From a virus, in the IMG/VR virus record IMGVR_UViG_3300046328_001165, positions 1 to 64,000 of that record: a stretch of DNA of 64,000 nt; one strand, given 5' to 3'. This document shows positions 17,381 through 50,200 of this stretch, in pieces (position 1 is the first letter of the stretch; each line of letters opens with the position of its first letter). The notes below the pieces were generated by a model. That model worked only from the letters and a program-made list of their open reading frames with translations, was not told where the DNA came from and searched no databases. Made by a program: the position numbers and the translations under genes.

Positions 17381-17419
17381 AATTCCAAAGCAACCTTGCT
17401 TTCGTAGACACTCATCAGT

Positions 17420-19219: not shown

Positions 19220-19306
19220 AGCGATCGCACAAGTAAATGTCGTAATACTAGCGATCGCCACCACGGAGAGTTTAGAAAGGGCGTATTTGGCGATCAAAGC
19301 AGACGT

Positions 19307-19762: not shown

Positions 19763-19766
19763 AGTT

Positions 19767-20876: not shown

Positions 20877-20880
20877 TTGA

Positions 20881-22262: not shown

Positions 22263-22358
22263 CTGGCTCAAAAGGAAAGAATAGATCCAAAATAGCAATT
22301 CGCGTTTATAGCGCTGAGGCTCTCACTGTATTGGCGATCGCCTACTATTAGCCGAAGT

Positions 22359-25900: not shown

Positions 25901-26022
25901 AAATGGAAAAGGAAGGTCGAGACTATATCGATAGTCAGACAAATAAAGACGCGATCGCCACATCAGAAGCCTACCTCAGCGCATATCACGAAACTCGTGA
26001 CAAATATCGGAGGGCTGGCTAG
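22927..26022 (+). CDS. Large low-complexity putative internal virion protein (RxD cargo family)
   Basis: 1031 aa; LRYD, a Cys pair, two Gly/Ala hydrophobic helices and a K/E/P-rich body; directly upstream of MuF. Confidence 0.7.
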   Translation: MPDLDKNYLAGLYLDEITLDVMPQEYIDAALEVKLRYDACPPRSGYNCVQDRRVKGGFYYRKAPQGQGVNALPPSKMERALARSREQPTQRSGIGFLGKAAIGAGVAIGGLALTGALVNAGRSSEPYQEPARQKPEKAKTSYTAATVGVSAAAATVGAAVFGLGRKPQPQEVDETIKPQESAKPPQTTEEAQRGEGASEAAYDIAAIKEVASVPLISAMKAYENALAPKYVGKAGLGGLDLAQARAKAASYGKPEGDEDFVRVSDMEKGRPTKPTKASREETSANLQKIYDKLEEYGLDDSIEFRNTRSQARGRMGQELTSPSANPYTVTRGGVTTNFGEIRFTRSPKDIQKAIAEKIKSQAEPKERVREKPPEPPAIAEIPDWLKEGRVYGSKAGDRPDATPADDPNPDTVQVSLSEAKAQKEQAQGALAREIRRGASAADGFVNQSSLMNDKVLKGRLYGNDPATLIAEGIDEGRIQTKKVGRNTCVRDIEAIPLKDFIAEAKGLSDVKDLNGDRRVKDLNDALNYKSLKASNDDERAGVVELRAAIANIQEVKPEQRGGKEPPVSKPNGESGEGGGKRVRGEGSKTSNAAKNLKSQKPVEEESPIIPISDEQAIALTQKDLAERRARQERLSMSRSGVPTRPDNYISPKKAVEEEGKKLREQLAEEGDGIDVDAFNKKIKALRNNTVIEGQVDSDSKIRELTEEYEQSLAEKRSSLASARDKKSADAIRSEISKLQAEGKGAVTARKSEIYESFGIPPLLENEKKKPAAEKTPLETPTPKPTPESMSTTPITPVPKAASEENAAAVSKVSKKKTPPVREEENSSPTVIKPKVQDIARIEDVYNSQIKDAEAIGDKALKARAKQIAFEDRERAIAALSSPPEPSVAPAPPVSETPKSSRAKRQPVSVATNTPVEIPPVNLKTLQSNIDATKTAVAKLEKSLARMESGGDPYKSAIDIMGTKQEELDGITREKLMSKLKKAIAKNKERVAEMEKEGRDYIDSQTNKDAIATSEAYLSAYHETRDKYRRAG

Positions 26023-26726
26023 TGGCAATACCTGAGTACCTCAAGTTAAAACCTGTTGACGCGATCGCTGCATTACGCGATCGCTTAGCTATACCAGTGT
26101 CCAGTCGAGCAATTACGGATGCCCGTTTTTACGACTATGCTTTTACAATTTCTGGTCTAATGCGAGCAGATTTGCTTGAGGCGACTAAGTGGCTAATCGA
26201 CAAATCCCTTGAGGATGGCACATCTTTTGAGAAGTTTACCCGCAGCTTCAACCGCCGCATCGGTCGCGCAGGATATCAGCCAAGTGGTCAGAGGATTAAG
26301 TTGATATTTGATACAAATATCAATAAGTCCTATTGGCAGGGACGGGAAAAGGTTATGCGGAGTCCTGAGATGCTAGCTAAAAGACCCTTGTGGTTGTGGC
26401 GCTGGCGGGACTCTGTAACTCCTCGCCCTGAGCACCAAGCTTTAAATAACAAAGCTATTCGGGCTGATCACCCATTCTGGAAGTCAATATCTTTCCCGTG
26501 TGGATTTGGCTGTCGCTGTTCTGTGTTCGCGGTGACGGAAGACTACTGCAAGCGCAACGGGATCGAAATTCTTGATAATCCGCCAGATCCTAAGATCATT
26601 GTCGATCCTAACTTTCGGCGTGGTACTGATATCAAAACTAGGGAGCAGATATTAGAACAGGGCTTGAAGAGATTGTCGCCAGACCTGCGATCGCAGGTTG
26701 AAAAACAGATTAAGGTGAAGAAATGA
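26022..26726 (+). CDS. Phage minor head protein, Mu gpF (MuF) family
   Basis: AFTISG, RIKLIFDTN, PRPEH and DHPFW...FPCGFGCRC motifs. Confidence 0.92.
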   Translation: MAIPEYLKLKPVDAIAALRDRLAIPVSSRAITDARFYDYAFTISGLMRADLLEATKWLIDKSLEDGTSFEKFTRSFNRRIGRAGYQPSGQRIKLIFDTNINKSYWQGREKVMRSPEMLAKRPLWLWRWRDSVTPRPEHQALNNKAIRADHPFWKSISFPCGFGCRCSVFAVTEDYCKRNGIEILDNPPDPKIIVDPNFRRGTDIKTREQILEQGLKRLSPDLRSQVEKQIKVKK

Positions 26727-31323: not shown

Positions 31324-32838
31324 ATGCCATTGAACCGAGTTATCGAGCCAATGGCATTTCGTTTTGATGATGTAAGTTTTGCGACACGCACTGAGATGCG
31401 TGAGGACGGTCTGTATGCATACAGCACCGTTTGTCGTGACGGGATACTAACGTATTTCCGAGGTGACGGCAAGCGAGTCCGTGAATTGCGACCTGCTTCG
31501 GCAAACCGCGATCGCGACTTCCTTGAAGCGCTGAAAGATCTGCCGATGACCGTCGAACATCCGACCTCTTTATTAAGGGGGAAACGAGATAGTTCTATTG
31601 GTGAGTTAACAAGGGCGGGTGAGTACAACGATTCTGAGGGGGTTGTACAGAATATTGCCCGAATCTCTAACCCCGACTTTGCTCAGTCTGTAAGGGCTGG
31701 CAAAAAGAACGGTTTGAGCCTTGGGTATGAATGCGAAATTGTTGAAGCTCCTGGCGGGGTCTGGTTCGATGCGATCGACCAGATTACCTATAAGGGCGAT
31801 TTCGATCGCGTTCAAACCAAGATTCGACCAGACCATTGCGCCGCAACCGACAACCCACGCGGGGGGAGCGATGTCAGGATGCACCTAGACAGCGCCGATA
31901 CCGATGAGGACTCAGTTGTTGGTCTAGAGCGGTTTGACTCAATCCAAGTTGACCGTCCTAGTCCGAACAGCGTTGTTGTTATTTCCACAAACAAAAATGA
32001 GGGTAGCTCCGCTATGTCCGATTTAAAGACGAAAACCTTGCGCGTGGATGGCGCTGATTATTTGGTGGAGGAAGTAGCAGCCTACCCTCTAAGTCAAAAG
32101 CTTGCCGAACTATCCACAATTAAAGCGCGTGTAGATTCTCTTGAGGCTGAACTCAAAGAGAGGATCGATACTATTGGCGAACTCACTTCTGATGTTAACC
32201 GCGCCAAGGGTCGTGCCGACGCTCTTGAAGATGAGTTAACCGAAACACTATCCGAGCTTGAAACCGCCCGTGCCGACGGAGAAAAGATGGCTAAGGAAGA
32301 CGAAGAAGGTGATGAAGATGAAGACGGCGATGAAATGCCCGACTTTATCAAGAAAAAGATGAAGAAGAAGATGAAGTCTGGCGAGAAGATGGATGCCTCT
32401 GATCTGGCAATCATCCTCGACTCTGACCAAGTTCGTGAATTTATAGCCGAAGAAATTAACAACCAGACCGCAGATCGTCTTCACGCTATTGGCAAAGCCA
32501 ATGATTTACTTTCCGCTAAGGGGGTAAAGATTGAGGACGCGGGTATCGTAACCACGATGGATTCTACCGAGATTCGTCGGGCTGCGCTCAAAGCTATCAA
32601 TCCTGATAGTGATCTAAGCGATCGCAACGACAGCTACATCGAAGCTCGCTTTGATAGCGCTGTTGAGTATGCTGCTCAAGCCCCTGCTACTAGCCATGCT
32701 GATCGTCTTGAGACCGCCGTAAAAGCTGGACGCACTACTCGTGGTGATTCTGAGCAGAAGAAGGATGCAGCAGAAGCCAACAACGAGCGCTACGGTGAGA
32801 ACCACAAAAAGCCCTTAACTCGTTCTACCAAGAAATAG
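31324..32838 (+). CDS. DUF2213 prohead protease fused to coiled-coil scaffold (alternative start 31351)
   Basis: RDGILTY, LPMTVEHP, LSLGY and QTKIRPDHCA...PRGG motifs, followed by an acidic coiled coil. Confidence 0.9.
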   Translation: MPLNRVIEPMAFRFDDVSFATRTEMREDGLYAYSTVCRDGILTYFRGDGKRVRELRPASANRDRDFLEALKDLPMTVEHPTSLLRGKRDSSIGELTRAGEYNDSEGVVQNIARISNPDFAQSVRAGKKNGLSLGYECEIVEAPGGVWFDAIDQITYKGDFDRVQTKIRPDHCAATDNPRGGSDVRMHLDSADTDEDSVVGLERFDSIQVDRPSPNSVVVISTNKNEGSSAMSDLKTKTLRVDGADYLVEEVAAYPLSQKLAELSTIKARVDSLEAELKERIDTIGELTSDVNRAKGRADALEDELTETLSELETARADGEKMAKEDEEGDEDEDGDEMPDFIKKKMKKKMKSGEKMDASDLAIILDSDQVREFIAEEINNQTADRLHAIGKANDLLSAKGVKIEDAGIVTTMDSTEIRRAALKAINPDSDLSDRNDSYIEARFDSAVEYAAQAPATSHADRLETAVKAGRTTRGDSEQKKDAAEANNERYGENHKKPLTRSTKK

Positions 32839-33734: not shown

Positions 33735-34640
33735 ATGGCTACTGAAATTAAAAACGATGACTGGTCAGTGGGCTACTTTAAAGAGCAGCTCGTTGAACTT
33801 GAGCAGACGATGGAAAAAGAAGAGTACGAAGAGCTTTATTGGGCTAATGGTACTCTCGTTCCTCGCGAGGACTGGAATAAGCCTTGGCTTGAAGAAACTG
33901 GCTACCGCAAGGTGACTGGTATCGGTCGGTGGGAAGCTGCTCGCGATTACACTACTCACGTCCCTAACGTTGAGATCGTATCGAGAGAGTTCCGCCAGCG
34001 CGTTTCCGAGCACATCGGTGGCTACACTGTTAACGACAAAGAGCTTGAGCTTTCTCAGCAATTTGGCACAGGCATTGACGCTGAGAAAGTTCAGATCGTG
34101 CTTGAGGCGGGTCAGCAATATCTCGATAAGATGGTATTCCTTGGTGATGGGCAGCTTCGTGGCTTCTTCAACCACCCTGACACCCTGAAGTCTTATTCAG
34201 CGTATCGCTTTGACAGCAATGCTACTGTTGCTCAGATGCTGGCTGTGTTGAACGACACTGGCAACTCTATGCGTCGCTTGACTCGTAATATCGAGACCCC
34301 CGACACCATCTTGTTTGCTCAGGCTGTTCACGACGAAATCAGCTTCCGTCGTTTGTCCGACTTCAATAGCGACTCGGTTCTTGACTATTACCTCAGTAAA
34401 GCGACTTACATCAAAGATGTAATGGCTTTACTACCTCTTGAGGGTGTTGGTGATGGTAATTCCAACGTGTCCTGCTATTACAAGCGCGACCCCAAGAAGA
34501 TCAAGTTCCGCATCACCGAGCCCTTCCAATTCAAGAAGTGGATCGAACTTCCTCGCGGTATGCAGCGCACTGCTCGCATGAGGTACGGTGGATTGATCAT
34601 CAAACGCCCTTACTCTGTGAACTGGGTTCACGGCATGTAA
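33735..34640 (+). CDS. Major capsid protein, DUF2184 (HK97/encapsulin-like) family
   Basis: VFLGD..LRGFFNHP, PDTIL, YKRDP and RYGGLIIKRPYS motifs; GGAGGAG RBS. Confidence 0.92.
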   Translation: MATEIKNDDWSVGYFKEQLVELEQTMEKEEYEELYWANGTLVPREDWNKPWLEETGYRKVTGIGRWEAARDYTTHVPNVEIVSREFRQRVSEHIGGYTVNDKELELSQQFGTGIDAEKVQIVLEAGQQYLDKMVFLGDGQLRGFFNHPDTLKSYSAYRFDSNATVAQMLAVLNDTGNSMRRLTRNIETPDTILFAQAVHDEISFRRLSDFNSDSVLDYYLSKATYIKDVMALLPLEGVGDGNSNVSCYYKRDPKKIKFRITEPFQFKKWIELPRGMQRTARMRYGGLIIKRPYSVNWVHGM

Positions 34641-35765: not shown

Positions 35766-36185
35766 ATGGCAACATTCCCCGTCGTTACCTCAGACACCTT
35801 TACCTCCGACGCTACGTTTTCGGATTTTATTGGTGAGTCACCAACCTTTATCCAGAGTTGGCTAAACGTTTATTCGCGTTTCTGCTCGATCGAAGAGTGG
35901 GGTGATAATGCGGAAATGGCGGTAATGTTGCTGACCGCCCACTATTTAGCTCTAAACACTGAAGAAGGTACGGTCACGATTTCCAATGCCAAGGCGATCG
36001 ATACTGGCGAGTCTATGTCGAATAGACGGACTTCAACCCCCGCCAACAGTAACGGCAAATTCTCCGATGTCTATCTATCGCGAACTACCTATGGGCAGCA
36101 ACTCTTGATGATCAAGGAATTGATATTGTCGGGTGGTTTTATGGGTGACAGTATCCCTGCCGTGCCGCCGTTTATTGCTTTCTAG
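35766..36185 (+). CDS. Head-tail adaptor, DUF4054-like
   Basis: MAVMLLTAHYLAL...YLSRTTYGQQLL. Confidence 0.85.
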   Translation: MATFPVVTSDTFTSDATFSDFIGESPTFIQSWLNVYSRFCSIEEWGDNAEMAVMLLTAHYLALNTEEGTVTISNAKAIDTGESMSNRRTSTPANSNGKFSDVYLSRTTYGQQLLMIKELILSGGFMGDSIPAVPPFIAF

Positions 36186-36212
36186 CCTCATGTACCACGA
36201 GTACAATGAGAT

Positions 36213-36246
36213 CAAAAGCCCTAGAGAATCTTCTCTAGGGCTTTTG
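36213..36246. terminator. Bidirectional terminator
   Basis: CAAAAGCCCTAGAGAA / TTCTCTAGGGCTTTTG perfect inverted repeat between convergent genes. Confidence 0.85.
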
Positions 36247-36275
36247 CGATAGATTATACTGCGGCAATATCTTCT

Positions 36276-36752
36276 CTAGCCAAAGATTTCCTTTCTCCTT
36301 TCTTTGCTCAGGGACATCACCTCTTTGCGCGATACGTCTTTCCCTGTGGCGACAGACTTGGCGATTGCGCCTACAACCTTTATGTCGTCCGTAACTGCGG
36401 TAGCAGATCTCTTGACTACATTTTTAGCGGCTCTCGCCACACTGCCAACACCACTTTTGACTTCACCTAAGTTCTGCTTTCTCTCTTGGCTTAAATCGTT
36501 AGTTCTACCTCCAAGTAATCTGAGATCGTCTTTTACCGCCTCAGCGGATCTCCCTACCACTTTTTTTTACGGCAGAGCCAAGACCACCAGATCCTACCTT
36601 ACACTTTTCAAGCATAGGTATACAGCGCGAACCACAGGGTTTATTGCCAATCTTGCATTTTGGTGCGTCCTCCCTTTTTTTTTTATCGAAGCCTCTGCAT
36701 CTATACGCACTTGGAACTGGGAGATCGCGTATTTAACACTAGAATTAGACAC
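36276..36752 (-). pseudogene. RxD cargo-family paralog broken by two homopolymer frameshifts
   Basis: GAGGA RBS and GTG start. Reconstructed protein: ...VRIDAEASIKK|REDAPKCKIGNKPCGSRCIPMLEKC...AVKK|VVGRSAEAVKDD. Shifts fall at A10 (36675-36684) and A8 (36561-36568). Confidence 0.75.
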
Positions 36753-36891
36753 GGTATAATCCTCAACGTTGATATAAGCAATTAAGACTTGTCGATTAGC
36801 AAAAAATACCACTTAATCTCAATTAGCGATCACACTATTAATATCTACGGCGATCGCTAATCTCCCAAGAAGGCTGCTTGTCCACACATTC

Positions 36892-37296
36892 GTGCCGAAC
36901 AATATCGTTATGTCGCTAGCTAACAAGATCACCACGAAACTTCAAGGATTGCGCGATCGCCTCGCAGGAGGTGCGATCGGTGCGCCTAATGTGTTGCCAT
37001 TGACAGTTGTGACTCGCACCGCATCGGGTGAAACCAGTCTTGAAATCTTGCCGCATCCCACGATTCTGCGGGTAAACCCTAAAACTGTAGCCCTGTTTGA
37101 AAGTACCAATATCAAGGTTGGTGTTGACGATTTTCAGATCAGCGGTATATCTGCGGCGTACACCGAGGCTCAGCTTACGGGCAAGGGTAAATATTACATC
37201 GTTGATGGGCGAATCAAGTGCAACGAGGTGATGGGCACTATCGAGAATAAGAGTTTTTCTTGGGAAATTATTTTGACGAGGATGCCAAACAGATGA
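36892..37296 (+). CDS. Putative head closure/stopper-like protein
   Basis: Size, beta-rich pattern, position after the adaptor. Confidence 0.5.
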   Translation: MPNNIVMSLANKITTKLQGLRDRLAGGAIGAPNVLPLTVVTRTASGETSLEILPHPTILRVNPKTVALFESTNIKVGVDDFQISGISAAYTEAQLTGKGKYYIVDGRIKCNEVMGTIENKSFSWEIILTRMPNR

Positions 37297-37706
37297 ACAC
37301 CATTTACGCAAGAATTGACACTCTTATTGACCAGCTCCGCGAAGATGCAAAGTGCGGATCGGGCAGTAAATCCTGCGGCAAGGTCTGCATCCCCCAAGAG
37401 AAGAATTGCTTAGGCGAAACAGCAAAAGCTTTTGGTGGTGGTGCGGCTCAAGCCCTTGCGGGTCCACTTGGCAGTGGCACTTATCGGGCGTTGAGATCGC
37501 AGGGTCGTAGTCGAAGGACTTCTATTGCGGGTGCGATCGGAGCGAATGTAGCCGCTTCTGTGGGCAGTGTAGCTCTCGCTTCTTATGCGATGAACAAGGC
37601 TAAAGAAGGGCTTCGAGATCCTGTTAACAAGGGTGTAAGTCTTGGCAAAGGTATAACCAAGATGGCTGACAAAGATTTCGAGAAAGCCAAGAAAAAGGGT
37701 AAGTAA
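37293..37706 (+). CDS. RxD cargo-family protein (Cys4 module plus hydrophobic helices)
   Basis: ATGA overlap; YARID..LREDAKCGSGSKSCGKVCIPQEKNC. Confidence 0.7.
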   Translation: MNTIYARIDTLIDQLREDAKCGSGSKSCGKVCIPQEKNCLGETAKAFGGGAAQALAGPLGSGTYRALRSQGRSRRTSIAGAIGANVAASVGSVALASYAMNKAKEGLRDPVNKGVSLGKGITKMADKDFEKAKKKGK

Positions 37707-37708
37707 TT

Positions 37709-39553
37709 ATGTACGAGATCGCATCTCTATCAAAGGTAGTCCGCCACGATGTCCAAACAGAGGTTAAGGTTCCAGCGCAGAACGGACGTAAGGCTTACTC
37801 GTATTTTCGCAATGCTAGCGCAGTTAAGAAAGGCGCTGCGGGTGTTGGCGCAGCTCTTGCTATTGGCGGACTGACTGCGGCGGCGATCGCGCTCAGGAAG
37901 AAGTCAGAAGAGTCAAATGCTTTGCCAGCACCAGTTGGGGTTCTCACTCCTATCGTTGCACCTCAATCCACTGCAAGTCGAGCTGGTGAGTTCGCCAAGA
38001 AAGCGGCGATCAAGGCTGGTAGGGTCGCAGGCGGAGCAGTCCTTAATGCTGCGGGAGCCGTAGTTATTGGTCAGGTCTCTGGACGTGTTATCAAGGAAGC
38101 AGTAAAAGACAGAAGATCTCCTGAGCAAAAAGCGGCAGCTTGGAAGCAAAAGGAGGAAGAAGAAAGAGAAGGGAGGGAAGCTCGATACGCCGCGTTTTTG
38201 CAATCAGATCCTAGGGCTACGGCGAAAGATAATATTGAATATCAAGAGGGGATGGCTCAGAGGGTCGTCGAAAGAGTTCGAGGCGAGGAGCTAGCGCCCC
38301 TCATTGAGCAGGATGTATCAAAATATCTCAAAGAAGTGGAAGTGGCGGAAAAAGATCTTCTAAGCAAGATGTCTAGACCCGATCGCCTGCCACCACCAAA
38401 GCCAAGACTAGAGGTTGGCGGAGCATTAGCCCCTGTCAACCAACCTCAAACCACTACACCCCCTATTCCAGATCGATTGCCATACAATCCTCGCGCACCC
38501 AAGGTGTCTACTAGCGGACTAACTTTTGCTGCAAGCGAACCTTCGGCACAACCTCAAAAACCCAAATTCGTCCAAGTTGCTGGTCAGGCTGGCGCTGCTT
38601 TGGGGCGCTTATATCGGCAAAGTAAAGAGCGGGATCGTATGGCTAGAGAAAATCTGGCGAATAATACCGTAGATCTTAATAAAGTCGCTGAAGGTGTAGG
38701 TCGAGGCGCTAGGTCTGTGTTGAGTGCTGTTGAGGGGTTCGCCCGTAAAGCCAAGCAAAGAGTTTCTGAAGATATCCAAACAATTGACATAAAAGCCGAA
38801 GAGGTAAAAGAGTCGAAGGCATCTGAGGATCTCAAGGGAGTTCAGACCAACGCGCTTCCCGAAGGTGGCAAGAGAAAACCTGGTCGCCCGAAGACCAAGT
38901 TTACGCCTAAAGATTTTATTAGCCCAGACAGTAAACGGGCGAGAAACAACTCCATTTATATGCGTATTGACAGCTTTGTTGATCGGCTCCGCAAGGATAC
39001 CCAAATCGAAGTCAAAGTCCCAGCGCAGAACGGGCGCAAGGCTTACTCGTATTTCCGCGAAGGCAATGAAGGCGAGGTGGGTTCTCCACGGATACCCTCC
39101 CGCAAAATTGTAGCGGGTGTTGGAGGCGCGATTGCGGCGGCTGGGTTGGCTGGATTAGCAGCGATCGCACTGAGAAACAGATCGGAAGCGATGAAGACTG
39201 TTGCGCCCGATGCGAAGCCTAAAAAAGCGATTGATATCAAAAAAGATATTGTTATCCCTTCAGTGATTGGGGCGAGTAAAATCGTTTTAACCGCAGAACT
39301 GGTGAAAGGTCTTAATGGTGTGGTATCTAAAGTTAGGGGAGTTAAACCCTCGGTGAAGGAAGAGTCGAAGACTGTTCCCGATCTGAAAGCCCCCAAGCCC
39401 GATCCTAGTGGCAAGGAAACGATTACGCCCGAAGAATCGGCAAAAGTAGATCCAGTAGTGGAAGTACCCTCCTTACCCGCCGAGCCAGAAGAGTCGAAGG
39501 TAGTTGCTCCAAAACGAGGAAGGAAGCCTCGCGCTGTCAAGCAGGCTTCGTAA
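37709..39553 (+). CDS. RxD cargo-family protein with two tandem modules
   Basis: R[HK]D..EVKVPAQNGRKAYSYFR plus a Gly/Ala helix occurs twice. Confidence 0.75.
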   Translation: MYEIASLSKVVRHDVQTEVKVPAQNGRKAYSYFRNASAVKKGAAGVGAALAIGGLTAAAIALRKKSEESNALPAPVGVLTPIVAPQSTASRAGEFAKKAAIKAGRVAGGAVLNAAGAVVIGQVSGRVIKEAVKDRRSPEQKAAAWKQKEEEEREGREARYAAFLQSDPRATAKDNIEYQEGMAQRVVERVRGEELAPLIEQDVSKYLKEVEVAEKDLLSKMSRPDRLPPPKPRLEVGGALAPVNQPQTTTPPIPDRLPYNPRAPKVSTSGLTFAASEPSAQPQKPKFVQVAGQAGAALGRLYRQSKERDRMARENLANNTVDLNKVAEGVGRGARSVLSAVEGFARKAKQRVSEDIQTIDIKAEEVKESKASEDLKGVQTNALPEGGKRKPGRPKTKFTPKDFISPDSKRARNNSIYMRIDSFVDRLRKDTQIEVKVPAQNGRKAYSYFREGNEGEVGSPRIPSRKIVAGVGGAIAAAGLAGLAAIALRNRSEAMKTVAPDAKPKKAIDIKKDIVIPSVIGASKIVLTAELVKGLNGVVSKVRGVKPSVKEESKTVPDLKAPKPDPSGKETITPEESAKVDPVVEVPSLPAEPEESKVVAPKRGRKPRAVKQAS

Positions 39554-39580
39554 TCACAGAAAAATGGCAGACAGGTAATC

Positions 39581-42208
39581 ATGTACGCGATCGCACCAAC
39601 ACCAGTAATTCAAAACGCAGATCCACTCGCAGCCAGAAAGATAATCGCGAGAATATTAACTCGCATAATTTCTCGCGCTTACGGAAGCATCGACCAAATC
39701 GTTAGTATCGACATTGCTGATGATGGTCTGATTACCTGTCTATTTCGTGACGACGACAAAGATCGAAAGTTAATTCGATTAGTGTTAGGCGATCGCGCTG
39801 AATACAGACAAATTCTTGATGGGCGTAATGATTCGCTAAATATCGATACAGATCAGTATTTAGTCGCGTATGCCAATAGTATTGGTCAGCGTACCGACAA
39901 GGTATCTAAACCGAATAACTGCAAAATAGGTACATCCTGTAAGGGCGCTTGCATCTCTAAGACCGATGTTTGTCGTGTCGATGTACCAGAGGTTTTGAAT
40001 AGGCAGGAGATTTCCGATCTGAATGACGCGGTAAACGACGTTCAGAGGGCAAAATTTGTTGGTGTTGCGCCAGTTTCGGACGAACTTGATAGCAAGAATA
40101 TTCGCGAATTGAAGGATGAAGCCCGTAAAAGGGGCGTGTACCGCTATTCGTACATGAATCAATCTCAGTTGCGAGAGTCTATTCGTTTGCAACAGGCTAA
40201 TCCCGAACGCCAAAATATTGTGCGAGAAGGGCTAAGCCGTAATGCGGCGAGTAAGAAAGCGCTCAAAAGCTTACTGCCTCAGCCTGTGGCTGGAGCATGG
40301 AAAGACATTGAGAAAATCAGTAAATTCTTTGGCGACAATCGCCCTGCGGCAGGAGTATTGGCGGCAAGCGTATTGCTAGGTATTCCATCGTCGGTAATGC
40401 TTTCAGCTCGCGATCGCTACAAAGAAGGCTTACCCGAATCGGCACTAATGGCATATCAAAGATCGCAAACCACCCCCGTAGAGCCAACTAGCAAACCTCA
40501 AATCACTTTTGCTGTAGGTGGGTTCTCTAATCTCGGATCTTCGGGCAGTAAAGTTGCTGAATACTTGAAGACACCTTTAGACACATCGAAGCGCGAGCAG
40601 TGGTTTAACAAGACCCAAGAAATCATCGCCTTTGATAGTCCTGAATTTAATGTTCCTCCTACAAAAATCGACAAAAAAGACAAGGATGGTAAATACAATC
40701 CGTTGTACTTGGGGTATGTTGCCAAGGAAAGTTTTGGTAAATATCTAAGCAATGTTGTAGGCGGCAGAAATGAAGCTGCTGTAGACTTGGCTTCCAAGTT
40801 ATATGCTTATGGCTCCAAGTACCGTAACAAACCTTTAAACGTCGTTAGCTATGGTTCTGGTGGCAATGTAATCGACGAAGCTGCGGAAATCGTTAGCCGC
40901 ATCAAGCCAGAAAAGGGGCTTGATGGCAGGGAGATCTTAAAGCGGCTAAATATTGCCAGACTTGGCGGAGCCTCTTTTGGTTTAACTGGTGGCACAACTC
41001 AAGACGAAAAGAACTGGGCAAGTATTAATAACCGTACTATCACGTCAAAAAACGATCCGTTTTCGATCCTACCCAAGAGGTTCTCTCAATTTGTTAGCTC
41101 TGTAAAGGGTGGTGAGATTGAGGATTACCTGACGAATAGCGATGCTAGAGACAAGATTCGTGAGGTGTTTGGCTTCTTCTCCAACTCTGCTGCGGGAAGT
41201 AAGATAACCAATGAAGCGAGTGACGAGATCAAGAAATCCTTGAAGGATGTAGCTAAGACGATCAATCCAAAGCTCGGAAAGTTGGCGAACCTGATTGACG
41301 GCATCTCGTCGAAATACTCAAACAACCCCGTAGCGGCGGCGATCGATACTGCTGGGGCTTTAGCTGTCACGGGTGTTGCCGTGGTCGCTAAGTCCAAGCT
41401 TAATTACAAAGAGAATCTTGGCAACTCGGCAAGCAAAGCTCAGGAGATGGTTTCTAGTGGGCAGGTCTCCCCCATCTCCATTTCCAAGCCCAACGTTATT
41501 ATCACTGTCGGAGATGCCGAGATAGATGGCGATGAGATGAAGAGAAAAATCGAAGGCGCAAAACAAAGCTCTGGGCGGGGGTTGGTAGCGAATAACTACC
41601 TAAATAACAGTGAAGTAATTGCATTTGACAGACCTTTTCTAACACCGCCCTCAAGGAATAAATTTATGGCTCCTGTAGATCTAATGGCAAAGACCTATGA
41701 AGCTGTTATGAATAGAACGCTAGCAGCGGGTACAGATCCAGAAGCCATTCGACTGGCTGCAAATATTTACGCGATCGCAAACACCCCCTACGCGGGTACT
41801 GCTAACTCCTATCCGTCTGTCTCCGTCGTGGGACTGAAGCAGGGTGGCGAAACAACGAAAAGGGCTTTGGATATTTTGGAAAAAATGACCAAGGTTCAGG
41901 TTGGGGCAAAGGCAGATCCCAATATAGTTGGTGGAAGATCTGTTTCCTCTGGTCAGGTGCATATCATCACGTTAGGAACCCCTGAACTCGATTTCGGGGG
42001 TAAAGGCGCAAACGCCGCTAGAAATGATTTATGGGTAGATGGGGACATATTTGGGCAAACACCTTTAAAAGGGTCTGCCCCATCGTACATCTCTACACAA
42101 GGTAATGGCAGTGCTAGTGATTACCTTGAAGCTCCTGTGGTTGCGGATCTATTGGGCAAGCTATCCTCAACCTCGTTTGCGAGAGCGAAGAAAAATAGGA
42201 GGCAGTAA
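39581..42208 (+). CDS. RxD cargo-family protein: Cys4 module, Rho-N-like HeH and two degenerate alpha/beta-hydrolase-like repeats
   Basis: QRTD..CKIGTSCKGACISKTDVC; KNIRELKDEARKRGVYRYSYMNQSQL; KPQITFAVGG / KPNVIITVGD, VVSYGSGG / VVGLKQGG. Confidence 0.7.
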   Translation: MYAIAPTPVIQNADPLAARKIIARILTRIISRAYGSIDQIVSIDIADDGLITCLFRDDDKDRKLIRLVLGDRAEYRQILDGRNDSLNIDTDQYLVAYANSIGQRTDKVSKPNNCKIGTSCKGACISKTDVCRVDVPEVLNRQEISDLNDAVNDVQRAKFVGVAPVSDELDSKNIRELKDEARKRGVYRYSYMNQSQLRESIRLQQANPERQNIVREGLSRNAASKKALKSLLPQPVAGAWKDIEKISKFFGDNRPAAGVLAASVLLGIPSSVMLSARDRYKEGLPESALMAYQRSQTTPVEPTSKPQITFAVGGFSNLGSSGSKVAEYLKTPLDTSKREQWFNKTQEIIAFDSPEFNVPPTKIDKKDKDGKYNPLYLGYVAKESFGKYLSNVVGGRNEAAVDLASKLYAYGSKYRNKPLNVVSYGSGGNVIDEAAEIVSRIKPEKGLDGREILKRLNIARLGGASFGLTGGTTQDEKNWASINNRTITSKNDPFSILPKRFSQFVSSVKGGEIEDYLTNSDARDKIREVFGFFSNSAAGSKITNEASDEIKKSLKDVAKTINPKLGKLANLIDGISSKYSNNPVAAAIDTAGALAVTGVAVVAKSKLNYKENLGNSASKAQEMVSSGQVSPISISKPNVIITVGDAEIDGDEMKRKIEGAKQSSGRGLVANNYLNNSEVIAFDRPFLTPPSRNKFMAPVDLMAKTYEAVMNRTLAAGTDPEAIRLAANIYAIANTPYAGTANSYPSVSVVGLKQGGETTKRALDILEKMTKVQVGAKADPNIVGGRSVSSGQVHIITLGTPELDFGGKGANAARNDLWVDGDIFGQTPLKGSAPSYISTQGNGSASDYLEAPVVADLLGKLSSTSFARAKKNRRQ

Positions 42209-42666
42209 TGAAATTAGATACCAAAATCAAGGTTGACGTGCCAGCAGCGCAAGGGCGAAAAGCGTACAGCTACGCTTTAGCTCTTAAAAGCCTAAAGCGA
42301 CGCGAAAAAAGGGCTCAGTCTAATTCAGACTCAAGCAGATTAGACACAACATGCGATCGCGGCAAACCATGCCAAGGCGAAGACGGACAAACTTACTGCA
42401 TCCCCCAAGGGGCTACCTGCGGTAAAGGCAAGGTCGGCAGAATCATCAAAGGTGTTGCTGGCGCGGTTGGTCGCGGCGTGATTACTGGCTTAACTGCCGC
42501 CGCGATCGCCAAACTTGCTAGCAAGGGTAAGGCTGGGTTGAAAGAGGATTTTAATACGGCGAAGATCATTTTTAATGCGGGTCGCACCACTGGCAAGATT
42601 GAGTCCAAGGTGGCGAATGGGGTCAAAGCTGTTAGTCGGATAATTAAGAACCGAGGTAAGAAATGA
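42208..42666 (+). CDS. RxD cargo-family protein carrying both module types
   Basis: KLD..VDVPAAQGRKAYSY; RLDTTCDRGKPC...CIPQGATC; hydrophobic helix. Confidence 0.7.
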   Translation: MKLDTKIKVDVPAAQGRKAYSYALALKSLKRREKRAQSNSDSSRLDTTCDRGKPCQGEDGQTYCIPQGATCGKGKVGRIIKGVAGAVGRGVITGLTAAAIAKLASKGKAGLKEDFNTAKIIFNAGRTTGKIESKVANGVKAVSRIIKNRGKK

Positions 42667-43778
42667 CAAGAGATTTAGCGGACGACCTAGCCTACCTTGA
42701 GGGGCAGATATCCGTGGCTCTACGCCATGATGCTGGCAGAAAGCTCAAATGTAAAGAAGGCTACGTTCAGCGCGGGAATGCCTGCCAAAAAGTCACTAAG
42801 AAGGCTTCTGGAGGTAATCTCGCGAGGAGTATTGGTACGGGCTTGGGTGTTGCGGCTTTAGCTGGAGGTGCGGCGGCTGGAGTGGCGATCGCGTCAAGAC
42901 GGGGCAGTCAATCAGGCAATTCGCCTGTAAGCAAACCAGATACTTTGCCTGCAAAAATCGAGACGGTTTCCTCGGCTTTACTCCCCAAAAGAAGAGAATT
43001 GATCGCGTATAAAGCGTCAAAGGTGCTCTCAGATAAGCGGGTTCGCAAAGCGGCGATCGCGGCAGGTAGTACTGGAGCTGTAATTGCAACAGTTGTCGGA
43101 ATAGGCAGTGTAAAGCTAACCAAAGATTATGCGGTTAAAGACATTGCATTGATAATGACCTACAAGCAGAGCTTGATACTAGGGAAAGCCGCAGATCGCA
43201 TCCTAGATAAATCCGATATAAACCCAGACTTAAAAGGTAAGGCTAAGGACTTGATTGGTATGACCAAATTAGCCTTGGCTAGAAAAACTATGTCCGTCAA
43301 GGGTCGCGACCTTATCGATGTGGATAAGGAGTCAAACAGCTTTACATATAGAGACAGAAAGAATGGAGGGATTTATACAGTAGCTTCTGTTGGTCCAGCC
43401 TTGTATACCTTTACCAGCGTGTTTAAAAAAGAGGTTTCCGCAGGGAAAGTTTACGAGGTTTCTTTTGCTATAAACGAATCCAACAATAGGGAAGAATCAG
43501 CGAATCTTGGGGCTTCAGGAGCTAAGCAAATTATAAGATTAACAAGACAGTCTTTCGACAAGCATGTTGAAGCCGTGCCCGACAATGTAATTCTAACCGC
43601 AGGTGCTTACGACAAAGATGGTGCAGGAAAAAAGCGTAAAAACATCTATGAGAATGTCGGTTTTGCCCCTATGGAGGGTCAAGATCCTATGGTCTTGTAC
43701 GCAGCAAAGAAGGATGGAAAACTTCAGCCGCTGTCGAGTGTCTACAGCGTGAAGAAACCCCCAGAAGCTAAGACTTAA
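42663..43778 (+). CDS. RxD cargo-family protein with C-terminal GNAT-like domain
   Basis: LRHDA..KCKEGYVQRGNAC; two hydrophobic helices; YEVSFAIN...KRKNIYENVGF. Confidence 0.65.
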   Translation: MTRDLADDLAYLEGQISVALRHDAGRKLKCKEGYVQRGNACQKVTKKASGGNLARSIGTGLGVAALAGGAAAGVAIASRRGSQSGNSPVSKPDTLPAKIETVSSALLPKRRELIAYKASKVLSDKRVRKAAIAAGSTGAVIATVVGIGSVKLTKDYAVKDIALIMTYKQSLILGKAADRILDKSDINPDLKGKAKDLIGMTKLALARKTMSVKGRDLIDVDKESNSFTYRDRKNGGIYTVASVGPALYTFTSVFKKEVSAGKVYEVSFAINESNNREESANLGASGAKQIIRLTRQSFDKHVEAVPDNVILTAGAYDKDGAGKKRKNIYENVGFAPMEGQDPMVLYAAKKDGKLQPLSSVYSVKKPPEAKT

Positions 43779-44227: not shown

Positions 44228-47200
44228 ATGGCTTCCCAGCAAACAAACGTTGTCGAGATCTTAATACAAGCCAAAGATCAAGCCTCAAAGACGATTGGCA
44301 CATTAAGCGACTCACTTGGCACGGCTGGAGCCGCAGCTCAGTTTGCTCAGGGAAAAATAACAGCTCTTGGTGGCGCATTGCTCACCACGTCTGTTTCTGG
44401 TATCAAGTCTTTAGGGTTGTTAGGTAGCGCGATTCAGTCGATTCGCTCGTCACTGGATACCCCTGTTGGGCAAACATTGATCCAACAGATCTCCTTGGCA
44501 GCGGACGAGGCTCTTGGCAAAGCAGCTAAACTCTCGACGCTAGTTAAAGAAGTATCTGGTGTATCCAAGGATTTTGGATCGGGCTTTGCGTCAAGGTCTT
44601 CGAGTAGCACGATTCAGCTATTCGACCCGTCGGTAACTGGGAAGCAGTTAGAAAACGTAGTTATCAAGACGGCTGATACATTTTCTAGGTCTCTTGAACA
44701 AAAGGTTAGAAATTCCGATCTAGCAACAGCGTTTGAATCCAAACTCGGCGTAAGTATAGATTCGATCGCTTCTCAGTTGGACAGCTCACTGTCTGAAACT
44801 CTTCTTTCAGGATTTGTGGGTAAGACGCTACCCAGCGCCCTTGACACGGCGTTAGGTAGCGTCTTCGGCGTGAACCTCACCTCAAAAATTGTTCAATCTA
44901 TACAAGCCGCAGGTAAGTCAAACCTTCTTGGCGGAGCTGTTGGTAAACTGGCTCAGGGGTCCGTAAGCGGGGCGGCAAGAGAATTGGTGATCGGAGAGCT
45001 AACCCCAAATCTTGAAGGGGCGCAGTTGGCTGGAGCCAAACTGTCTAATGTCTTTGGTAAGAAAGTAGCTCAAGCGGTATTAGGAGAAAGAACTCCTGCT
45101 AGCGCAGAATTTAAGCAGATTGACGAGCAATTAGGTGGGGCGCTTGGTGATGTCATTAGCCGCCTTGGGCAAAGATTCCCTGATGTTCTTGGAAAAAGCG
45201 ACCTCCCTATCGGCAAGTTACTTGCCACCAAGTTGAGGGGGCTTGCTGAGGTTACATCAAAAAACGAATTACAGGCAGCAGGGAATCTGTTTGTTGAAAC
45301 AGCCTTTTCTGGGTTAAGGGGCATTCGCAAGGACTTTTTGGGCGACGACTTGAATGCGGTTTTTGATCTTGTCATAGCACCAGCTTTCGACGCTCAGAAG
45401 GAAAACCTGAAAAAGCTGATTGGCATAGATTCCGACACATTTTCTCAAGGGTTTTTAGACCCGCTCAAAAAAGCGTCTAAAAATCTAGCGAAGGGCTTTG
45501 ACGACAGCTTAGAGGCAGGGCTTGGTGCGCTAGGGAATGGAGGTGCAATCGCCGAGTACTTGGGGGATGTTGATGAGTTTTTAGGTGGTGGGATAACAGA
45601 AGCCTTATCTCTTGCGGGGAATAAAGCCGCCTCCAGTTTTGCTGACGGGTTTAGAAGCGCAATTTTTGAGGAAATTACTGGCGTAATCGACAATGTTGAC
45701 GCTTTTGTTCTGGGAAATTTAGAACAGGTTAAACAGATCCCCCAGAAGCTTACACAGCCCGTTGGCTTGGTGTCATTGGTTGCAGATCCACTCGCGGGTG
45801 CTACCGAGCCGCTAGAGCTTTTTGAGTTGCTTGAAGCGGGTGCGGGTAAGGCAACCAACGCCATTTTTGAGGTTTCTCAGCGACTAACATTCCTTTCTTT
45901 TGGCTTTCAAGCTCTCCAAGGTTTCGTTCAAAACGGTCCATTCGATCTGCTTATTGGGCAGAATGCGAGACTGCAAGAACAACTTCTAGCGACACAGGCG
46001 AGCCTTGTAGCCACAAACAAGATTCTTCAGAATGGCGTCGTAATTTCCGATCCGACAGCAGCTATCAAGGCTTTGGGTCCTGCGGTTGAAGGTGCGATCG
46101 CCAAAATTCGGAAAGACTCACTAGAGCTTGTCGGCGTAACCTCCAAAGATCTCGTAGATTTATTTCAGATTGTTGCTGGTCAGGCAAGTAATATTGGGGC
46201 GAACCTAGATCAGTCCGCCAATATTGTCACGTCAACCGCTGCTGCGCTCGGAACTCTAGGCATCCCTTTGTTTCAGGCAAGGCAAGAAATCACCTCAATC
46301 GTGCAGGGGACGATTGACCAAAACTCTTTGCTAGCCAAAAACTTGAATCTCAACAATGAGATGGTCAACAAGTGGAAGGCACAGGGAACCTTCGTTGACG
46401 AGCTGTTAAAAAGACTGGAAGCGTTTAGGGCGGGGAACAAACTCGCCAGTCAGACGATATCGGGGATTACGAGTAACATTACCGAACTTTTTGATGAGAT
46501 TGGACGCAAGGCAGGGGCTAAATTTTTAAGCCCGATTGTCAAGGAATTGGACAATGTTTATCAGTTTCTTGCGGCAAACCAAGAGACGATTTCAGCCCAA
46601 GTTGAGCAGCTTGTTTCTACGTTATTCGTAGCCTTTGACAAGATCGTAGTCCTGTTTAAGTCTTTGGGAGATCCGATCGCCAAAATCTTTGGTGGCATTC
46701 CTGCTTACTTAACAGGTTCGTTGGTCGGGGCTATTACCGCGTTCTCTGATGCAATAGTTTTTACCGTAAACGTTCTCAAGCCAGCTATCTCTGTGTTTGC
46801 CGAGGTTTTTAAACTTATTGCGCCGCTAGGGGGCTTATTTATAACGGCTTCCATCGGTGCAAAGGTCCTATCCGCAGGGATACTAGGTCTGGGGCAAGGG
46901 TTTGGGTTTCTCGCAAAACTTCTACCTGGTCTTGGCGAACTACTCTTTCTTGTTGATAAGAGATCTAACAGTCTTTTTAATCAGTTTCTAAACCTTACAT
47001 CGGTATTAGGTAATAGGGGAGCGGCAGGTTTTCTAACCTTTGCGGCAAATTTAGACAAGATACCTGGAGCCGCAGGTTTCGCTACCAAGCAATTGCAGGG
47101 TCTTCTTGGTAGTCTAGCTCCTTTGTCTGGGTTTCTGGTCTCTTTAGCGCCTCAAGTCGGGGGGTTGGGAATAAAGCTGGCGGGTTTAGCCCAGGCGTTT

Positions 47201-50200
47201 CCTGCCCTTAAAAATGTTTTTGAGAAGGCTTTTATTGGCGCTCCAGGCGCTTTGTTGGTCTTGTCGAGAGTCGTTGGCAAGAGCGAGATCTTTGGAAGTC
47301 TCGCCCCCCTCATTGGGGATGCATCAAAGCAGCTTGCGAAGTTTACGGGTATTGCTGGTAATGCGGAGAAGGCGAATTCCTTACTCGCCAAGAGCTTGCA
47401 ACTAGGTGGCGCAGCCGCTAGAGAGTTCGCCGTAAATAGCGTATTACTTGGCGCTGGAATTGGTATCGGGTTCATCTTCTTTGACCAGCTAATCCTAAAG
47501 AATAAGGGTCTCCAAAAAATTATTCAAGACCTAATAGGAACTATCCGTAAATTTGCGGACACGGTGGGTGCGGTTCTTGGTCCAGTGTTTAAACTGATTG
47601 GCGACACAATTTTGCCGCTGTTTACTTTTGGGGAGAATTCTAATCCTTTCCAGAAGATTGTTGGTGGATTGCTGATTGCGATCGCGGTTGTAAAACTTTT
47701 TGGTGGAACGATAACCAATGTATTTAAAACCGTAAACGTCAGTATCGGAACTCTTGGGACTGGCATTTCGGAGACTTTTACTAAAATCAAGAGGGCTAAT
47801 GACAGCCTAAAGGAAATACTGGGGCTTGCAAGCGAGGAGGGTAAAAGCAAGACTTTTACCAGCCCCGTCCTAGAGGAAGACCCAAAGAAAAGAAGGGAAG
47901 CTAGATCTGCTCTACTCAAGGAAGCTTTGGCAGCTAAGAAGCAAGAGTCGCTCGCTTTAAGTTCTGGGGAAGCTGAAGCCGCAAGGAGTAAAAAGAATTC
48001 ACTTACGCAGGTAGCGCAATCCTTGGTAACAGGGGAGGCAAAAATTTCGATCCCTTCGGCGGGGATTATAACTCAGCGGGATGTGACCCAAGCCAAACTG
48101 CGTGTATCCGAGATAACAAAAGATATCATTCGGTTCTCGAAAGAGGCTAGACAGAGCGCGACCGTAGACCCTGTGGCTTCAAGTATCGCAACAGCGAGAA
48201 GGGAGTTTGCGATCGCTCAGGCAAATGCGGTTAGAGCAGGTATAGAGAATCAGAAACTTATAGCCCCTTTAAGTCAGTTGCTGTTTGAGAAGCCCACTGC
48301 TTTACTGTTTCAGCTCGGAGCTTCTGCATCTGAAGGGTTCAGATCAAACCTTTTGAAAGCTGGAGACGCGATTAATAATTTCGCCCTGAGAGGTGGGTTC
48401 GCATTATTAGAGCTTGAAAACAAAATAAGAAGTGTCCCAAAAGTCTTTAACGACATAGCTTTGAAAGGAGGCTTTGCTCTGCTGAGCCTTGAAAACGGAT
48501 TGAGAAACATTCCAAAATCCCTTGATACTATAACCACAAAAGCTGGGTTTGCCTTGCTAAGCCTTGAAAACGGTCTTAGAAATATTCCCAAGACTTTTGA
48601 CAACATTGCTCTGCGAGGAGGGTTTGCCTTACTAGAAATAGAGAAGGGTTTAAGAAACATTCCCACGGCTTTTTCTGGGGCGATCGCCTCTGTTGATCAG
48701 AAAATCAAAAGCCTGTTTAGTGGTGGAGCAAAAAGGTTTGATTTCGGCGAGGCTCTCAGGGACTTGGATACAAGGGCAGGCAACTTTGTCGATCCTGACC
48801 GAGCAGAAAGGCTGAAAACTCTAGAAGAAATAAAATCCTTTAACGAAAAGCGCAAAGCACTCATTGCTGACGCTAAAACCATAGATGCTGGTACAGGGCT
48901 GTCTGCGGAGGGCTTTACCGCCGAGAAGATCGGGAAGGAAGTCCAAAGTGTAGATGCTAATATTCAGGCGTTAAGCGCAAAAGCTGAGCAGCTAGATATT
49001 CCCGTAAGAAAAGCGGCGAAGGGGCTTGTCAACTCCTTTAAAAACGTTATTGCAGAAATCGGTCCAACCTTACTGCTCACGGCTTTGTTCGCTGGCATTA
49101 CTACCTATATCGGTTTCATTGATGAGCAGTCAAAAATTGCCGCCGACGGCGCTGAGCGATTAGGTAACACCCTCAGAGAAAGTAAGGCGAAACTCGATAT
49201 CCTCAACAAGTCTCAGGGTAGAGATGCTTTGGGTGAACTAACAAAGCTTACTGCGGAAAGACAAAGGTATGTAGATGCTATCAAAGATCCTAAAGTACTT
49301 AATGACGACCCAACCCTAAAGCTTTACGATCGCCAAATAAAGAAACTTCAAGAACTTAGGGCATTACAAGCTAAACCTGTAAATGCCGAAGGACAAATCA
49401 GACAGGAGACAGACAAGGAATTTGAGTCCTTCGATAAGAAGTTTATCTCCTTCTTGGGTGGTCTCACTGGAACCAACGTAAAGGAATCAACCAATCAGGT
49501 AAAGATAGCCTCAGAGAATGTCAACTTAGCCCAAAGCCAAGCTGAGGGTCGTGAGCTGAGGTCTCAGCTTCGCGAACAAGCAGCTTTGCAGGAAGGGCTG
49601 ATCAAGCTTGAACAGAGAAAGAATCTGCTTCAAGGGCAAGGTGACAGCGACGGGGTGGCTCAGATAGAGATTGAAATAGAGACACAGAAAGAATCCATCG
49701 CGGTAAGAAAGAGCTTTCTTGATACGGTTATCAAGGGTGTTGAAACCAATAAGTTAGACAGCCAAAGTAAAAGAGATCTTTTGGAAGATCTAAAAAAGCT
49801 TAAAGTTGCCTACGATCCCGCTAACTTAAAAATCGCACCTATCGACCTACCTCGTATTGGTGGTGCTATTGAACAGGCTGCGTCGAGATACCAAGCTGCG
49901 GTTACGGCGCTTGCTAGATCTGCTGGAGATCCAACCCTGTTTAAGACAAAAATAACAGAGCTGCTCGAAACGGCAACCGCATTACAAGATGCAGGTATAT
50001 TGCGAGCCGATGAAGTAGCCAAAAACTTTATCGGTATCGCTGCCAACGTATCTGCTGATCGCGATCAGCAGATTAAAGCCCAGCAAGCTATCACTGAGGC
50101 TTACCAGAAAGAGTCTCAGAAGCGTATTGCTACGATCGATGCACAGCAGGCGAAGATCCAAGCTTTGCTCGCTACTGGGAAGATCTCTGAGTCTGAAGCC

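Follow-up and report, generated by a model that had tools for sequence, protein, structure and literature searches.

The internal head proteins of phage T4 carry a capsid-targeting sequence that is cut by the protease gp21 at L/I-x-E, and the inner-body proteins of phiKZ are cut by gp175 at S/A/G-x-E. In T4 (L/I-x-E) and in phiKZ, such a short motif pervades the scaffold and marks the boundaries of the cargo for the head protease. The MuF polymorphic toxins of temperate phages, reportedly described by Jamet and colleagues in 2017, represent a second related system, and a third is formed by the polyvalent proteins of phages and conjugative elements (Iyer, Burroughs, Anand, de Souza and Aravind, 2017; PMC5512222). 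Closer at hand are proteins of the Planktothrix phage PaV-LD and the Aphanizomenon phage vB_AphaS-CL131 (hereafter CL131), which were published as hypothetical or unidentified structural proteins, with no family, motif, polyprotein or protease link given (PMC6293099; GenBank annotations). Here, we describe a family of modular genes related to these, located mainly at 36276-43778 of a stretch of viral DNA of 64,000 nucleotides (the window), which comprises the first 64 kb of the 92,683-bp linear IMG/VR virus record IMGVR_UViG_3300046328_001165 (CheckV completeness estimate, 69%). We somewhat favour the view that these genes form a cassette of basic, modular virion cargo, which would be packed into the head, cut by the DUF2213 protease at the motif R-x-D and exported with the DNA, the payloads then acting on the host.

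A sequence-only reading had assigned leaders ending in [RK]-x-D and small modules to six genes of this region and to two others (22374 and 22927), and all of these motifs were found in the respective genes, which are named here by their first nucleotide. Each module in the window has an [RK]-x-D no more than 16 residues upstream, the one exception being the N-terminal module of 22374. Gene 37293 (37293-37706, plus strand) encodes a minimal unit of 137 residues with an isoelectric point (pI) of 9.9, in which a leader with RID and RED precedes a four-cysteine (Cys4) motif (37353-37409) and a transmembrane (TM)-like helix (37518-37595). The product of 37709 (37709-39553, plus strand; 614 residues, pI 10.0) consists of two units separated by a disordered, Pro/Lys-rich linker. 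In the first of them RHD is followed by a VPAxxGRKAYSY module (37763-37804) and a TM helix (37832-37894), and in the second RID and RKD are followed by another copy of the same module (39011-39052) and a further TM helix (39107-39172). Gene 39581 (39581-42208, plus strand) encodes an 875-residue protein with an N-terminal domain (N-domain, residues 1-100), two near-invariant R-x-D motifs (RND, 39824-39832; RTD, 39890-39898), a Cys4 motif (39920-39973), a SAP/Rho_N-like helix pair, a TM-like helix (40343-40408) and two alpha/beta-hydrolase-like repeats (about 40451-41200 and 41441-42205). Tandem adaptors are present in 42208 (42208-42666, plus strand; 152 residues, pI 10.3), with KLD before a VPAxxGRKAYSY module (42232-42273) and RLD before an expanded Cys4 motif (42352-42420), and a Gly/Ala amphipathic helix follows. 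Finally, in 42663 (42663-43778, plus strand; 371 residues, pI 9.8), RHD precedes a 2-Cys hairpin (42750-42785), TM-like helices (42828-42896 and 43050-43112) and a C-terminal domain (about 43300-43740). These five plus-strand genes are tightly packed, with overlapping stops and starts.

A second family site adjoins the MuF gene and spans 22374-26726 on the plus strand (genes 22374, 22927 and the MuF gene 26022). The 2-Cys motif of 22374 (22383-22418) is located at the very N-terminus, and in 22927 RYD and a 2-Cys motif (23044-23070) are accompanied by two TM-like helices and by a long tail that is disordered or coiled. Gly/Ala-rich, uncharged helices of 20-26 residues bounded by Lys or Arg were found in 37293, 37709 (three), 39581, 42663 (two) and 22927 (two). 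The members of the family have pI values of 8.8-10.3, and those of the cassette 9.3-10.3, in contrast to the acidic pI of the other structural proteins of the window.

The sequence-only reading had also counted gene 36752 as a member. Its motifs are indeed present, in that the leader contains R-x-D twice and is followed by a Cys4 motif (36601-36657) and a basic tail, but the gene is inverted, on the minus strand (36276-36752), and can be read through only with two frameshifts that compensate each other, one located at an A10 run (36675-36684) and the other at an A8 run (36561-36568). Accordingly, this inverted paralogue may be a pseudogene, an assembly error at homopolymers or a slippage-dependent gene. 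Both runs are on the coding strand. The paralogue is absent from the related IMG/VR contig L003, where the slot is empty. In two other related contigs its place (equivalent to window 36186-36891) is taken by a gene resembling Thoeris anti-defence 2 (Tad2-like; PF11195, E=1.6e-23; L004 12480-12731 and L005 8744-8995), and the slot looks like a variable moron position inside the structural operon.

To see how far these units extend, we collected related loci with the major capsid protein (33735-34640, plus strand; PF09950, formerly DUF2184) as anchor, and searched them with a hidden Markov model (HMM) built from 17 units consisting of R-x-D and Cys4. The search returned 104 matches, 73 of them unique, in 27 loci, with up to eight per 20 kb, and all copies were on the capsid strand save for the inverted paralogue of the window. 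In 61 of the 73 unique units [RK]-x-D was found at most 16 residues upstream, whereas a random position in the window proteins has the motif within 14 residues upstream 8.7% of the time. A chance association of [RK]-x-D with the modules, as against the association proposed from the sequence, is therefore excluded; more generally, chance or low complexity as the source of the motif was rejected by these statistics together with conservation across clades. R-x-D is also best seen as a feature of the junction, since it stands ahead of three unrelated types of adaptor, and for the same reason we rejected the idea that it forms part of one adaptor fold.

The Cys4 knuckle follows the consensus C-x(5-6)-C-G-x2-C-I-x5-C. 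All four Cys are invariant across 38 diverse units, a Gly and the Ile are near-invariant, and at least 90% of the units keep the Asp as well as the Gly that follows the second Cys. In an AlphaFold2 (AF2) model, the Cys4 module of 39581 forms three short strands (predicted local distance difference test, pLDDT, 66-79). The adaptor could bind metal or form disulfides, bind DNA via its Lys-rich flanks, or be the true incorporation signal. We found no Pfam, NCBIfam or PHROGs family for any adaptor module or for the N-domain, no usable match for 37293 in the ESM Atlas, and no unit elsewhere in the virus record. When 1.84 billion cluster representatives were searched with a profile, 564 proteins were identified at E<=1e-3, of which 71 reached E<=1e-10. 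Many of them are polyproteins of 1,000-3,641 residues that contain three to seven units; R-x-D stands before most of these units, and a hydrophobic helix often comes after them. PaV-LD encodes seven unit-bearing proteins (ORF061, 065, 078, 079, 080, 081 and 085), and in CL131 units are found in ORF044, 045 and 047, with four copies inside the 1811-residue ORF048. The VPAxxGRKAYSY adaptor is confined to the sub-clade of the window and a Pseudanabaena contig, and also occurs with a DnaJ payload. As for the hydrophobic helix, which had been claimed for most members, this holds in the window, but across the 73 units it follows in only 22 and is absent in the PaV-LD clade. A search for the module in 300 other sampled cyanobacterial genomes returned nothing (E<=1e-6), and the notion of a common prophage cassette was dropped on this account. 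The cassette is characteristic of one cyanophage clade, which includes PaV-LD, CL131, Nodularia phages and the Pseudanabaena-associated phage. A bare C-x-x-G-x-P-C-G-x-x-C-I motif lacking R-x-D was detected in the proteins P0012 (527 residues, ten tandem copies) and P0050 (128 residues, with a signal-peptide-like N-terminus), suggesting that the bare knuckle is older and more widely distributed than the phage unit.

The closest relatives, three IMG/VR contigs (L003-L005) with capsids 91-92% identical to that of the window, showed how these units are rearranged. In all three, the leader of the second VPAxxGRKAYSY module of 37709 precedes the Cys4 unit of 37293 instead, in one fused gene, so that the 37293 unit is joined to the C-terminal end of the first half of the 37709 homologue; the 42208 homologue of these contigs starts at Met-(x)-Arg-Leu-Asp immediately before the Cys4 motif. 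In L004 the second VPAxxGRKAYSY unit heads a separate gene with a different payload, and L003 contains an extra gene led by a 2-Cys module and an insertion of about 1.1 kb in the 42663 homologue. Thus, units fuse, split and swap at the R-x-D junction among relatives as close as these. The proposal of a paralogous, modular, payload-swapping family linked to heads of the DUF2213/PF09950 type was borne out across the related loci.

The motif that marks these junctions is also abundant in the head maturation protease of the window. This gene (31324-32838, plus strand) encodes a DUF2213 protease (PF09979, E=2e-11; phrog_530, 'head maturation protease', E=1.5e-46) fused to a scaffold, the C-terminal scaffold part being long, acidic and coiled. 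It contains 13 R-x-D motifs, 11 of them as R-x-D-[SGAT], as compared with a mean of 1.24 in shuffled sequences. The same enrichment was found in PaV-LD ORF071 (12 versus 1.07), CL131 ORF038 (4 versus 0.58), the Pseudanabaena contig (10 versus 0.93) and gp022 of Synechococcus phage S-CBS4 (locus L052; 5 versus 0.61). In these five phages the enrichment was 7-11-fold and none of 3,000-5,000 shuffles reached the observed count, CL131 excepted (0.18%). RxE, KxD and DxR, taken as controls, showed no enrichment in the scaffold, nor did RxD when the next residue was not a small one. Neither was the scaffold enriched in phage Pam3 (1 versus 0.90), Vibrio phage 1.016.O (0 versus 0.39) or Erwinia phage SNUABM_27 (1 versus 0.55), and no Cys4 unit was found in the whole genomes of these three phages. 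The residue after the Asp is small at 33 of 38 scaffold sites and at 144 of 228 unit sites. Among 53 proteins of the window the protease-scaffold is a clear outlier in R-x-D-[SGAT]. The next most enriched proteins are 11870-12352 (2 versus 0.10), 37293 (2 versus 0.12), 14866-15285 (2 versus 0.19) and the portal (3 versus 0.69), all of which are possible further substrates of the protease.

Within the DUF2213 domain (31324-31938), His79, Ser132 and His171 do not vary among 12 homologues with identities as low as 29%, which makes them candidate catalytic residues of a serine protease. Because one short motif both pervades the scaffold and marks the cargo boundaries, as it does in T4 and phiKZ, the simplest reading is that R-x-D followed by a small residue would be the maturation site of the head protease. 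Maturation of the cassette proteins by this protease, which the sequence-only reading had suggested, thus gains indirect but strong support, of a purely statistical kind, from the scaffold enrichment. The leader in front of the motif ranges from four to more than 100 residues; in L004, Met-Arg-Leu-Asp directly precedes the Cys4 motif, and as such very short leaders exist, the leader is not itself the packaging signal.

With respect to location, homologues of the cassette proteins are physically present in virions, as had been predicted for the family. LC-MS/MS of CsCl-purified CL131 virions identified 23 structural proteins, and ORF044-048 were all among them, with 123 peptide-spectrum matches for ORF045 and 175 for ORF048, which are among the highest counts (PMC6293099, Table S5). 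Four of these five proteins (ORF044, 045, 047 and 048) carry the Cys4 unit, and the pI of ORF044-048 is 9.1-10.2, again in contrast to acidic values of the other structural proteins. Association with the head is suggested by the neighbourhood of the second family site. The portal (13186-14853; phrog_146), 22374 and the MuF gene (26022-26726, plus strand; PF04233, E=1.5e-9) match consecutive parts (positions 52-465, 512-623 and 895-1110, respectively) of phrog_220, 'minor head protein and DNA pilot', and 22927 is likewise among the genes that match consecutive parts of it. In PaV-LD, ART domains of the MuF-type 'minor head protein' kind have units as neighbours or as fusion partners (ORF079/085). 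The portal-MuF fusion is a single gene of 1393 residues in CL131, and in the window it is split by a minus-strand, fibre-like block of about 7 kb (15254-22298).

The payloads that follow the adaptors are diverse. The long tails of 37709 and 22927 are disordered or coiled. In the case of 39581, the sequence-only reading had proposed a duplicated hydrolase-like payload, and the fold call was right, but neither repeat retains the nucleophile Ser or the His: in place of the Ser there is Gly in repeat 1 and Lys in repeat 2, in place of the His there is Gly in both, and the Asp of the triad alone is kept. The protein aligns with CL131 ORF048 (E=6e-40), whose units match DUF676, Lipase_3 and DUF900; ORF048 units 1 and 2, as well as ORF047, keep the motif G-H-S-A-G. 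Judging from these residues, the alpha/beta-hydrolase fold of 39581 is likely retained and activity is unlikely. Sequence searches of the PDB with 39581 and 42663 returned nothing at E<=1, and the Cys4 unit was likewise without a PDB sequence match.

The C-terminal domain of 42663 has two relatives in total among 5.8 billion proteins. An AF2 model of residues 150-371 (pLDDT 78) gave GNAT toxins as top Foldseek matches (E 5e-3 to 2e-2), and VIA-align superposed GNAT chains over residues 66-207 (Z 7.2-7.7, root-mean-square deviation (rmsd) 3.3-4.2, 104-124 residues aligned), values that lie inside the usual noise band. No Pfam match was obtained for 42663, BLASTP against a GNAT-bearing relative was not significant, and the two have in common only a short motif of the type Y-x-x-x-G-F. 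The structural matches are weak but consistent, and a GNAT-like fold of this domain is moderately supported by the modelling. Elsewhere, we found several alpha/beta-hydrolase families (CL131 ORF048 and P0002), an ART domain assigned by Pfam (PaV-LD ORF079), DnaJ (P0002, P0004, P0013 and P0156) and GNAT (P0004); P0004 combines DnaJ, alpha/beta-hydrolase and GNAT. LRAT and NlpC/P60 payloads occur in P0009 and in a Pseudanabaena polyprotein, and both are carried by L047 15192-19292. PaV-LD ORF080/081 contain H-E-x-x-H motifs, and JAB/RadC-like payloads (L003/L004 and CL131 ORF044) are named on the sole basis of an H-N-H-P...S-x-x-D motif, with no Pfam match.

Taken together, the cassette can be explained by a series of steps, starting from a common plan of the unit: an optional N-domain of about 100 residues, an R-x-D-(A/S/T) junction that is often doubled, an adaptor, a helix and an exchangeable payload. 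The adaptor is a Cys4 knuckle, a 2-Cys hairpin or VPAxxGRKAYSY, and the helix, in the clade of the window, a Gly/Ala-rich one of the membrane type. In the window, the payloads comprise disordered tails, two hydrolase folds predicted to be catalytically dead and a GNAT-like domain; in other members they include active-looking esterases, ART, LRAT/NlpC-P60, DnaJ, ParB/Srx and domains with zincin motifs. Such units evolve in that they fuse into polyproteins, split into separate genes and recombine at the R-x-D junction. The proteins would then be loaded into the prohead and incorporated into virions, as seen in the relative CL131. On the strength of the motif statistics, the DUF2213 serine protease is expected to degrade its own R-x-D-rich scaffold and to cut the cargo at R-x-D before a small residue, which would separate the units and trim the leaders. 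The composition of the products, their helices and the types of payload further suggest that the basic products would leave the head with the DNA, the helices would enter host membranes and the payloads would act on the host.

Several observations weigh against this proposal of head-packed, protease-matured cargo. Nowhere has a cleavage product, a neo-N-terminus or ejection been seen, and the mass spectrometry search of CL131 virions allowed fully tryptic peptides only, and is therefore silent on processing. An R-[FL]-D motif near the N-terminus of DUF2213 is kept without exception, in homologues as distant as 29% identity too, and is probably structural, implying that not every R-x-D is a site. 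The S-CBS4 scaffold is rich in R-x-D, yet no Cys4 unit was detected in that genome; its cargo, if any, may use another adaptor. In addition, the hydrophobic helix is missing in the PaV-LD clade, the hydrolase-like payloads of the window are predicted to be inactive, and the cassette is located directly upstream of a tape-measure-like gene, a position that would also fit the tail lumen. Finally, R-x-D is kept two to five residues from the initiator Met in several genes (in L004, L003 and P0029), which is odd for a site that purely separates domains, and fits either a docking motif or the need for a defined new N-terminus.

The first of these possibilities amounts to an explanation of its own, in which R-x-D followed by a small residue is a docking or targeting motif rather than a cleavage site. 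The cargo would mimic the scaffold in order to bind the same partner in the procapsid (the capsid interior, the portal or the protease), and would stay uncut or be cut elsewhere. The presence of the motif in both scaffold and cargo is accommodated by docking, and so is its retention with just one to four residues ahead of it, where cutting achieves little; moreover, one N-terminal copy in DUF2213 is invariant and probably structural. The pattern in the scaffold speaks for processing, since ten or more copies to a scaffold, in each of which the Asp is followed by a small residue, are what is seen in scaffold degradation, as with L/I-x-E in T4, and polyproteins of up to 3,641 residues with the motif at each unit boundary are also easier to explain in this way. 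We regard docking instead of cleavage as unlikely, and both may be true together.

The position of the cassette raises a second alternative, namely that its products are pilot proteins of the tail lumen, associated with the tape measure and assembling with the 2923-residue protein encoded directly downstream (44228-52999, plus strand), in which case they would not be packaged in the head and R-x-D would be unrelated to the head protease. That downstream gene, for which we found no Pfam or PHROG match of its own, occupies the same position as the tape-measure proteins of PaV-LD (ORF088) and CL131 (ORF049), and the cassette lies between the head-tail connector genes (in the window, a DUF4054 connector at 35766-36185) and the tape-measure-like gene in the window, PaV-LD, CL131 and the Pseudanabaena contig alike. 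Hydrophobic helices rich in Gly/Ala typically occur in tape-measure and ejection proteins, and the CL131 annotation gives ORF047 a weak match to 'tape measure domain protein'. However, units also adjoin the portal and MuF in the window and in PaV-LD, where they are even fused to the MuF-type 'minor head protein' ART domains of ORF079/085, the motif is common to the scaffold, and the tape-measure-like protein itself is not enriched in R-x-D (5 observed versus 6.5 expected). A tail-lumen location thus appears improbable, a shade more so than docking. That the genes encode non-virion late proteins of the host membrane (for lysis control or superinfection exclusion), whose shared motifs reflect common descent only, is suggested by the TM-like helices with basic flanks but is very hard to reconcile with the abundance of homologues in purified CL131 virions, the placement of the genes in the structural operon, where their start and stop codons overlap, and payloads that match the injected repertoire of polyvalent proteins (PMC5512222).

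The N-domain of 39581, of about 100 residues, also heads proteins of PaV-LD, and is found internally in polyproteins of the CL131 clade, always before R-x-D and Cys4. Its alignment contains two R-x-D motifs about 20 residues apart, with R82/D84 and R104 present in at least 90% of the rows and D106 invariant, and the doubled pattern recurs in the short leaders of 37293 and 37709. In an AF2 model of the N-domain and knuckle (pLDDT 72.5), a helix on a four-stranded sheet is followed by another helix and the small three-stranded knuckle, and both R-x-D motifs fall in low-confidence linkers between folded elements. The model gave no convincing match among solved structures (Foldseek, E>=0.35; best VIA-align Z 5.2, rmsd 3.9, 70 residues aligned), the best VIA-align matches being VirB8/cystatin/NTF2-like arrangements. 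Among predicted structures in BFVD, ParB/Srx and DUF3626 proteins of Nodularia phages share the N-domain and knuckle.

By capsid, the nearest isolates are PaV-LD and CL131, both at about 33% identity, and the nearest named sequence is the 66.6-kb contig of Pseudanabaena sp. 'Roaring Creek' (49%). The cassette region gave no match to phages by megablast, nor did 42208 by tblastn; 37293 gave a weak tblastn match to PaV-LD and nothing else. As the record is a viral contig and not a demonstrated prophage, the prophage framing of the sequence-only reading is not supported.

A broader proposal, which we put forward tentatively and with rather less confidence, is that the cassette represents a widespread (at least 564 clusters) and undescribed cargo system of cyanophages, in which a protease specific for R-x-D before a small residue would cut both scaffold and polyproteins, units of four-Cys knuckle and membrane helix would, once ejected, plant exchangeable enzymes (esterases, ART, LRAT, DnaJ, GNAT and ParB) in or at host membranes, and the junction would also serve as the point of recombination at which payloads are swapped. 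A literature search found no description of the family. The anatomy given here provides a name for many 'hypothetical structural proteins' of bloom-relevant cyanophages (with Planktothrix, Aphanizomenon, Nodularia and Pseudanabaena hosts), and leads to a definite prediction, namely an unusual cleavage specificity in a family of head proteases that has received little study. This prediction can be checked at once in existing virion mass spectrometry data. R-x-D together with Cys4 is, in addition, a simple sequence handle for injected effectors and swapped payloads in viral metagenomes.

Among the systems described, the polyvalent proteins (PMC5512222) resemble the cassette in being linked to virions and associated with MuF and portal, and in carrying many unrelated enzymatic domains (ART, zincin, ParB/Srx and hydrolases). 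Injection together with the DNA and processing out of multidomain polypeptides are predicted for them, as we propose here. Their linkage to virion, MuF and portal is also seen in the cassette, which lies in the structural operon and whose sister units adjoin MuF and pieces of phrog_220. Several disparate activities on one polypeptide, a defining property of polyvalent proteins, are found in relatives (CL131 ORF048, P0004 and L047), whereas the payloads of the window are mostly on separate genes. The cassette differs in that each payload has its own R-x-D junction and a Cys4, 2-Cys or VPAxxGRKAYSY adaptor, often with a membrane helix, in that units interchange between separate genes and polyproteins, and in that processing is attributed to the head protease and not to an embedded zincin. 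Cysteine motifs, transmembrane segments and cyanophages are unmentioned in the text of PMC5512222.

Like the MuF toxins, the cassette proteins join a conserved N-terminal part, which is associated with the head, to variable C-terminal domains, toxic or enzymatic, that are diversified by recombination. In contrast to them, the cassette proteins carry no MuF domain (none of seven members had a match at E<=0.1), MuF being encoded by the separate gene 26022-26726, their conserved part is a 40-residue junction plus knuckle, and no immunity genes were seen. The internal proteins of T4 and phiKZ are likewise basic, have short N-terminal leaders ending in a three-residue acidic motif that also occurs throughout the scaffold or core, and are ejected with the DNA, as proposed for the cassette. 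Here the differences lie in the protease family (DUF2213, phrog_530) and in the proposed P1 Asp and P3 Arg, and there is no sequence homology; unlike the capsid-targeting leaders of T4, of about 10 residues, the cassette leaders can be as short as four residues and are not a targeting signal. The direct homologues of the cassette are CL131 ORF044-048 and PaV-LD ORF061/065/078-081/085, which are built from the same units at the same position of the genome.

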